Positions 4,703-4,918 of a stretch of 64,000 nt of DNA are shown here, piece after piece. The stretch lies in the IMG/VR virus record IMGVR_UViG_3300025949_000016, one strand, 5' to 3'. The translations under genes and the position numbers were made by a program. The notes under the pieces were generated by a model, which was not told the DNA's origin, did no database searches, and worked only from the letters and a program-made list of their open reading frames with translations. Within the stretch, counting starts at the first letter, position 1. Each line of letters begins with the position of its first letter. This DNA is from a virus.

Positions 4703-4918
4703 TAAGCTCCTATACACCTTATTGATAGATGAAGCCTTCGATTCGTGGTTGGCAGAACTGGTAAATGCACCTGTCTAAACCCTAAAAATGGAGTATCTAT
4801 TTGGGCTAAAACGGGTTAGGTGACTGGATATTCTGTTACATCCTTCTATGAGTTCGAGTCTCATACTGCGAGGAGAAGAACGGATCAATAAGTGGGATTA
4901 TCCCTGTATAGGAGCTTA
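4703..4918 (+). ncRNA. Long-stem RNA enclosing a tRNA-like domain (4743-4872)
   Basis: Perfect 14-bp TAAGCTCCTATACA/TGTATAGGAGCTTA and 9-bp CTTATTGAT/ATCAATAAG stems; inside: acceptor TCGTGGT/ACTGCGA, D-arm GCAGAACTGGTAAATGC, T-arm ATGAG-TTCGAGT-CTCAT, enlarged anticodon and variable arms. Confidence 0.7.

Follow-up and report, generated by a model that had tools for sequence, protein, structure and literature searches.

We analyzed a 64,000-nt stretch of virus DNA (IMG/VR virus record IMGVR_UViG_3300025949_000016, hereafter the window) and find at positions 4703-4918 a tRNA-shaped element in which a conserved 36-nt hairpin module takes the place of the anticodon loop and the acceptor stem continues into a long stalk. 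The element recurs in a family of five distinct members whose stems covary and which is absent from Rfam. We favor the reading, at a probability of roughly one-half, that a class II (Leu/Ser-type) tRNA has given rise to a stable RNA that would not decode and whose invariant arm would serve as a recognition handle for a factor.

The initial annotation described a class II-type tRNA body at 4743-4872 with a long variable arm, a CCTGT/ACGGG stem around 36 nt made of CTAAA, a hairpin, and CTAAA, enclosing stems of 9 and 14 bp, and no encoded CCA, and it judged the RNA unable to decode as written. All of this stands. The boundaries of the body are exact and coincide end to end with a match to the Rfam tRNA model RF00005. 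The acceptor stem pairs 4743-4749 with 4865-4871 over 7 bp, two G.U pairs included, and leads into U8, G9, the D arm, and position 26 (4750-4769, with the D arm proper at 4752-4768); the D stem is GCA/TGC, and the D loop carries A14, A15, G18, G19, and A21. The anticodon-position stem, CCTGT (4770-4774) with ACGGG (4811-4815), closes the module (4775-4810). It is followed by a variable arm of 32 nt (4816-4847) with an outer stem, V3-6/V26-29, an inner stem, V12-15/V19-22, and a final base that is Levitt partner 48, then by the T arm (ATGAG, TTCGAGT, CTCAT; 4848-4864) and the 3′ strand of the acceptor stem with position 73, a G (4865-4872). In place of CCA, G4872 is followed by GAG. All of these parts, and those of the stalk, lie on the + strand.

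Within the module, two copies of CTAAA (4775-4779 and 4806-4810) flank a 26-nt bulged hairpin. The copies form a symmetric 5x5 internal loop, above which come a lower helix of 3 bp (CCC 4780-4782 with GGG 4803-4805), a UAA bulge of 3 nt on a single strand only (4783-4785), and an upper helix of 7 bp with a 3-nt loop (4786-4802). Together with the anticodon-position stem, the module makes an irregular helix of ≈20 bp, and it stands where a 7-nt loop would be in all five members. Readings of the bulge as a K-turn or an 11-nt tetraloop receptor, judged by eye only, gained no support. At the other end of the body, T4742 is able to pair with G4872 to give a -1:73 pair. Beyond it lie stalk helices of 4 bp (4736-4739 with 4875-4878), which adds to the two stems first annotated, of 9 bp (4718-4726 with 4884-4892), and of a perfect 14 bp (4703-4716 with 4905-4918). 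The 3′ strands of the two inner helices fall within 4875-4892, and a small hairpin, GGG-ATTAT-CCC (4894-4904), sits within the 3′ side of the stalk.

A T-rich run straight after the stalk (4919-4925) may mark the end of the transcript; a pattern scan called no terminator there. A near-consensus sigma-70-type promoter (TTGGCA, 17 nt, TATAAT; 11 of 12 matches) is found at 4531-4559, ≈145 nt upstream of the stalk, and a transcript driven from it could take in 4579-4691 and then the tRNA mimic as far as the T-run at 4919. A motif scan gave no enrichment of a Bacteroidota-type promoter motif. The element lies among small, early-looking genes and in their orientation, "early" referring only to the look of these genes.

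Search patterns derived from the module led to four metagenome contigs with two distinct versions of the element (L003, identical in L004 and L005, and L006). Further versions were located in a 78.7-kb IMG/VR contig, G001 (member L008), and in a 168-kb IMG/VR contig, G403 (member L071). The least that any pattern demanded was the CUAAA loops together with parts of the closing stem; in the one for L071, only the stem and these loops were fixed, and the hairpin was wholly unconstrained. In pattern searches of IMG/VR and of 185,579 species genomes, the CUAAA-hairpin module was seen in this five-member family only: the remaining IMG/VR matches are unrelated sequence, and the 15 matches in the species genomes are all unrelated as well (coding sequence or a Cytophagales hairpin repeat), with no host counterpart or CRISPR-like array among them. 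Other queries added no member. GenBank phages gave no blastn match with 3900-5200, IMG/VR gave none with a 24-mer of the T arm and acceptor, 401 Bacteroidota genomes gave chance-level short matches only in a BLAST search with the body, and a spurious open reading frame (ORF) overlapping the element in antisense recovered only itself.

When the window is compared with each phage contig, the element is the top nucleotide match, and no neighboring proteins are common to the window and the relatives. The element is kept across phages without shared flanking genes, which isolates the conservation to the element itself. Next in rank between the window and G001 is the nucleotide match of 63115-63260 with 9851-10008 (74% over 160 nt). 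A sigma-like protein encoded near the element has no relative in IMG/VR and one 38% relative in a set of 5.8 billion proteins, on a contig (L002) that begins just downstream of the expected element site. The YpsA/SLOG-family protein encoded at 6412-6891 of the window led, as an anchor, only to an unrelated tRNA cluster (L001), where its sole IMG/VR relative (42% identity) lies directly upstream of eight tRNAs.

To compare the members, the five bodies were aligned by structural segments. Compensatory double changes occur at 20 of the 28 body base pairs, namely at all seven in the acceptor stem, four of five in the T stem, two of three in the D stem, six of eight in the variable arm, and the closing pair of the anticodon-position stem, which changes from U-A to A-U in L008 and L071. 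Standard pairs fill 135 of the 140 cells given by 28 pairs in five members. For the first four members, the share of cells that pair is 96% in register and falls to 35-44% if the 3′ partner is shifted by 1-3 positions. The tertiary core follows suit: the Levitt 15:48 pair switches between A-U and G-C, 26:44 also covaries, and U8, A14, G18, G19, T54, T55, C56, and A58 are invariant across the five members. The variable region is 32 nt long in every member. The initial annotation had named uncompensated decay of the stems in homologs as the mark of a simple pseudogene. The stems covary instead, so the pseudogene reading clearly fails and the element belongs to a functional RNA family.

The arm at the anticodon position is conserved in a different manner. 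Over its 46 nt, module and closing stem together, pairwise identity is 87-96% with a mean of 91%, and the acceptor strands are 19-29% identical; these figures come from the first four members, with L071 left out. Two substitutions in the upper hairpin disrupt pairs and are uncompensated, which indicates that sequence, and not only pairing, is kept there. L071, the least biased sample, retains CCC/GGG and has the same hairpin sequence with a 1-nt shift. A conserved small peptide across the module was rejected, as frame ends and codon changes are inconsistent with one, and mimicry of a CRISPR repeat or tracrRNA was weighed and found no support.

The acceptor end varies from member to member. Position 73 is G, C, T, T, and A across the five, and the 1:72 pair varies too, so there is no common charging identity; the -1:73 pair, as read from the flanking sequences, is kept in all five. 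A long stalk appears in the folds of four members, with unrelated stalk sequences, and L071 has an extension of 8+3 bp only. A decoding tRNA is marked by a charging identity and a free 3′ end, and from these sequences the element as transcribed appears to have neither a common charging identity nor a free acceptor end.

By folding, the element exceeds chance: a 231-nt region has a folding energy of -69.6 kcal/mol (z = -3.78), and none of 200 shuffles was as good. With introns allowed and the default threshold, ARAGORN makes two calls in the 64 kb, the element and one true tRNA. RF00005 matches 4743-4872 over model positions 1-71 with 31.3 bits (E = 3.5e-5; gathering score 29), visible only in a 156-nt input with the Infernal speed filters relaxed. 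Because of the insert, the element is missed by default ARAGORN and by Rfam scans of 801 nt at the gathering score or at E <= 10. RF00005 scores 34.2 bits for L006, 40.9 bits for L008, and 41.2 bits for L071, with boundaries that agree exactly with those set by hand, and this places four of the five members above the cut-off; L003 gave no match at E <= 0.1. The practical lesson is that genes of this type are seen only with intron options on or filters relaxed. Two alternative folds were rejected, the tRNA-Leu(tag) model with a 39-nt intron proposed by ARAGORN, whose partner segment differs in every member, and the alternative anticodon stems of Infernal, whose partner segment likewise changes from member to member. 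ARAGORN found no transfer-messenger RNA in the window or G001. The 36-nt insert has no Rfam intron match and is too short for a group I core (≈200 nt or more with P3-P8).

The element shares with class II tRNAs (Leu/Ser, RF00005) the 7-bp acceptor, a 3-bp D stem with G13.A22, A14, G18, and G19, the 5-bp T stem and TTCGA loop, the long variable arm, and the Levitt and 26:44 pairs. Its D arm is identical at 15 of 18 positions, counted by eye, to that of Flavobacteriia tRNA-Leu(CAA). It differs from class II tRNAs in the 36-nt module that replaces the 7-nt anticodon loop, the variable and paired position 73, the missing CCA, and, in four members, the long stalk, and its 32-nt variable arm is longer than in the real class II tRNAs compared. 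In engineered "tRNA scaffold" RNAs, a foreign RNA replaces the anticodon loop, an arrangement that gives stability. These RNAs are likewise a tRNA body bearing a structured module at the anticodon stem, whereas the element is natural and conserved and has an additional acceptor stalk.

In the reading that we favor, the full L-shaped tRNA core, with its acceptor, D, T, and long variable arms and its tertiary pairs, would be kept as a stable scaffold, or as a mimic that tRNA-recognizing proteins could engage. The invariant arm would be the handle by which a trans-acting factor recognizes the RNA in a sequence-specific way; this factor is probably a protein of the host or else of the phage, and the symmetric CUAAA/CUAAA internal loop suggests that the binder may be two-fold symmetric (dimeric). 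The RNA would then act as a decoy or an adaptor ribonucleoprotein, as Y RNAs do for Ro60. A decoy for an anticodon nuclease is one possible version of the same reading. Because the searched bacterial genomes hold no similar sequence and the window holds no antisense target of the element, a protein partner is more likely than RNA mimicry or base pairing. The usual view of phage-encoded tRNAs is that they help with codon usage or stand in for tRNAs cut by host defenses. A mimic of the kind proposed here would put the tRNA fold to another use, and the partner of its arm could reveal a new mechanism of host takeover or anti-defense in soil and environmental phages with crAss-like features.

Several points weigh against a non-decoding mimic. 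The family counts only five members, and the invariance of the arm is partly circular, since the search patterns included parts of that arm. In the sequence examined, the element has no co-occurring protein gene, and no TROVE/Ro60 gene was found in the large ORFs of the window, in G001, or in G403. With its A73, its near lack of a stalk, and its place in a tRNA array, L071 looks more like a processable tRNA than the other members do. Finally, the flanks of the insert give a perfect C32-U33/C34-U35-A36-A37-A38 loop, which excision would neatly explain.

An alternative that we consider unlikely is a cis-acting processing or stability element with no function in trans. The tRNA shape would recruit RNase P/Z and the stalk RNase III, and the polycistronic transcript of the region would be cut or its ends stabilized; tRNA-like punctuation of this kind is established in mitochondrial transcripts and for mascRNA. 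The element is intergenic and co-oriented with flanking small ORFs in all contexts, four members have long double-stranded stalks, and several other ORF-free stretches of the window are also closed by stems of 13-18 bp, all of which would fit. RNase P and RNase III, however, make no demand for an anticodon-end arm of 36 nt with invariant sequence or for a variable arm of constant length (32 nt), the stalk is almost missing in L071, and the conservation extends across phages that have no conserved flanking genes to regulate.

Longer odds attach to a Y RNA in the strict sense: the phage would supply the Ro60/Rsr ring of its host with an RNA partner, which would tether the ring to an effector as YrlA does. 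Four traits define the YrlA family (RF02553), which also occurs in phages (Chen et al. 2014, PMC4201824). Its RNAs are syntenic with rsr, a Ro60/TROVE gene being encoded on the same strand at a distance of up to ≈4 kb; a Ro60-binding GNCGAA motif, in full GNCGAA(N)G, lies close to the 5′ end; the D and T stems are conserved; and the arms are permuted, with the variable arm first, then the T arm, the acceptor hairpin, and the D arm, while the stalk sits at the anticodon position. YrlA and the element share several features: both are non-decoding tRNA mimics with an intact D/T elbow, an altered anticodon-position stem, an extra helical handle, and no free CCA end (PMC4201824), and a Bacteroidota control genome encodes TROVE. 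Against membership, the YrlA model RF02553 has no match at E <= 10 in window positions 4400-5200 and none in G001, and the GNCGAA motif is not seen by eye in the 5′ stalk of any member, no formal motif scan having been made. The arms follow the normal tRNA order, not a permuted one, and the stalk continues the acceptor. No TROVE domain turned up in the window ORFs of at least 150 amino acids, of which all but two were scanned, or in G001 or G403, and no rsr gene lies nearby. The conservation is also placed differently, since YrlA conserves the D and T stems whereas the element conserves the anticodon-position arm, and the stalk, as the expected binding site of Ro60, shows no conservation of sequence. 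Of the earlier suggestion of a Y-RNA-like mimic on a protein-binding stalk, the relatives uphold the general idea of a non-decoding mimic; membership in the YrlA/Ro60 system fell away for want of a model match, motif, TROVE gene, or permutation. By analogy, the closed acceptor, the intact elbow, and the extra handle give the element the outline of a Y-type tRNA mimic, though one outside the YrlA family.

We regard as quite improbable a caged or intron-bearing tRNA, from which a protein endonuclease would remove a 29-nt hairpin between U33 and C34, perhaps by recognizing the two-fold symmetric CUAAA loops, and a ligase would reseal the strand to CU-CUA-AA. End processing and CCA addition would then yield a class II amber-suppressor or Leu-type tRNA. 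Excision at U33/C34 is the only one that gives a canonical loop with U33 and A37, ARAGORN calls the element a tRNA once introns are allowed, and L071, with A73 and nearly stalkless, sits among tRNA genes. A Bacteroidota control genome has RtcB, and some recoded crAss-like phages are without a detectable suppressor tRNA (PMC7886860). The element also shares with the intron-bearing pre-tRNAs of archaea and eukaryotes an extra hairpin in the anticodon loop and roughly two-fold symmetric basal loops. Unlike the bulge-helix-bulge of those pre-tRNAs, however, in which two 3-nt bulges are offset by a 4-bp helix, the element has facing 5-nt loops in a symmetric 5x5 arrangement and a 3-bp helix, and its insert falls between 33 and 34 instead of 37 and 38. 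Its setting is a bacterial virus, and the insert is its best-conserved part, more so than the "exons", the reverse of ordinary tRNA introns.

The decoding side of this account fares no better. In-frame stop analysis shows no recoding of TAG in the window or in the 168 kb of G403, and G001 recodes TGA. Position 73 varies and pairs with -1, and 1:72 varies, so the members share no charging identity. The anticodon stems that ARAGORN and Infernal offer as alternatives also differ between members. The splicing endonuclease family PF01974 was not found in G001, RtcB was found in neither G001 nor G403, and neither enzyme turned up in the scanned ORFs of the window. The protein-spliced intron offered in the initial annotation is disfavored by this set of observations: a most conserved insert, no bulge-helix-bulge geometry, no TAG recoding, and a position 73 that is variable and paired. 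A hidden amber suppressor is unlikely because three phage sequences show no TAG recoding, position 73 is varied and paired, and no gene for Ro60, RtcB, or a splicing endonuclease was found in the phage sequence scanned. Slightly less probable again is the specific version in which the 29-nt hairpin is a removable cage and a symmetric endonuclease, cutting at the two CUAAA loops, with a ligase such as host RtcB, would convert a silent RNA into a class II tRNA with a CUA anticodon at a chosen time of infection. If true, this would be the first bacterial virus with protein-catalyzed tRNA splicing, and the cage would give it a switchable suppressor.

A chance as slim as that of the spliced tRNA is left to a nuclease-released small RNA, in which cleavage at the two CUAAA sites would free one 31-nt unit and the body would be merely its carrier. 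The unit could be a single-unit mimic of a type III antitoxin or a different small effector RNA. The 26-nt hairpin is indeed flanked by an exact direct repeat of 5 nt, which makes the repeat unit 31 nt long, A-rich sites resemble ToxN-type cleavage sites, and phages make pseudo-ToxI RNAs. Type III antitoxins, however, consist of tandem repeats of ≈34-45 nt beside a ToxN-family gene, whereas here there is one unit and no tandem array; no ORF of >92 amino acids lies within 1.4 kb, ToxN itself not having been searched for. The body and variable arm are under strong selection that a mere carrier would not need, and the 185,579 species genomes hold no similar repeat array with the pattern used. A decaying tRNA pseudogene with a chance insertion would explain why the element is unable to decode as written and why default tRNA finders miss it, and it is refuted, to near certainty, by compensation at 20 of 28 pairs, covarying tertiary pairs, and an insert that is 87-96% identical.

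The five-member family looks like one type of phage tRNA-scaffolded RNA in a class that is wider and for the most part uncatalogued. Directly upstream of L071 in G403, and adjoining two low-scoring canonical tRNAs, is a tandem array of three tRNA-shaped genes (L072 c7398-7554, c7566-7755, and c7766-7940; G403 73397-73939) with Leu-type D arms and anticodon-position inserts of 68-96 nt. These neighbors (L072 c7398-7940) resemble the element in their Leu-type bodies and large inserts at the anticodon position, and they are arrayed; their modules are different. G001 carries a second tRNA-Leu-like gene at c64180-64310 (L032 4180-4310, - strand). As read from its sequence, a CCTGT/ACAGG stem closes 20 nt with a GAAA-capped mini-hairpin there, and the extra sequence between the D arm and this stem has GCTCATA (7 nt) on both sides. 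Three further tRNA-shaped elements lie in the window at 23893-23967, 27129-27212, and 27261-27333, with good acceptor and T arms and abnormal anticodon regions. Two of the three are called by ARAGORN, at lowered thresholds only, and the first has a weak match to a tRNA-Sec model (20.2 bits) and, by our reading of the sequence, an 8-bp acceptor. Together with the element, the G403 neighbors and these window mimics would make up a class of RNAs that standard tRNA finders and default Rfam skip.

Stalk-like closures are found elsewhere in the window too. ORF-free stretches lie within 2642-3462, 4001-4691, and 17547-17827, and several of them are each closed by their own inverted repeat of 13-18 bp (2642/2855, 2850/3017, 3018/3159, 3249/3462, 4198/4257, and 17547/17827). 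Rfam gave no match on these stretches. Their appearance is that of a series of structured RNAs, each "clamped" shut, and the tRNA mimic seems to have the same device in its stalk. Shortly upstream of the RNA cluster, a 60-amino acid ORF (3489-3671) scores 26.2 bits, just short of the Pfam cut-off of 27, for the Acb2/Tad1 hairpin domain; this borderline match is to a family of anti-CBASS/Thoeris sponges. At the other end of the window, a calcineurin-like phosphoesterase (55390-56130) and a small AAA_33 P-loop kinase-like protein (58283-58786) are encoded 2 kb apart. Both kinds of domain are known from the RNA-repair enzyme Pnkp, yet many unrelated proteins have them too, and a domain scan showed no ligase domain.

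G001, a contig estimated as 79% complete, has no canonical tRNA. Its late genes are TGA-recoded (L029-L032, 17900-45600, + strand), with 11 in-frame TGA codons in a 4895-codon ORF, and its minus-strand replication and early-looking genes contain almost no in-frame TGA; the crAss-like label for this contig rests only on that ORF and the TGA-recoded late genes. G001 also carries a match to the Pistol self-cleaving ribozyme (L008 6951-7013, - strand) that scores 59.3 bits against a cut-off of 34.5.

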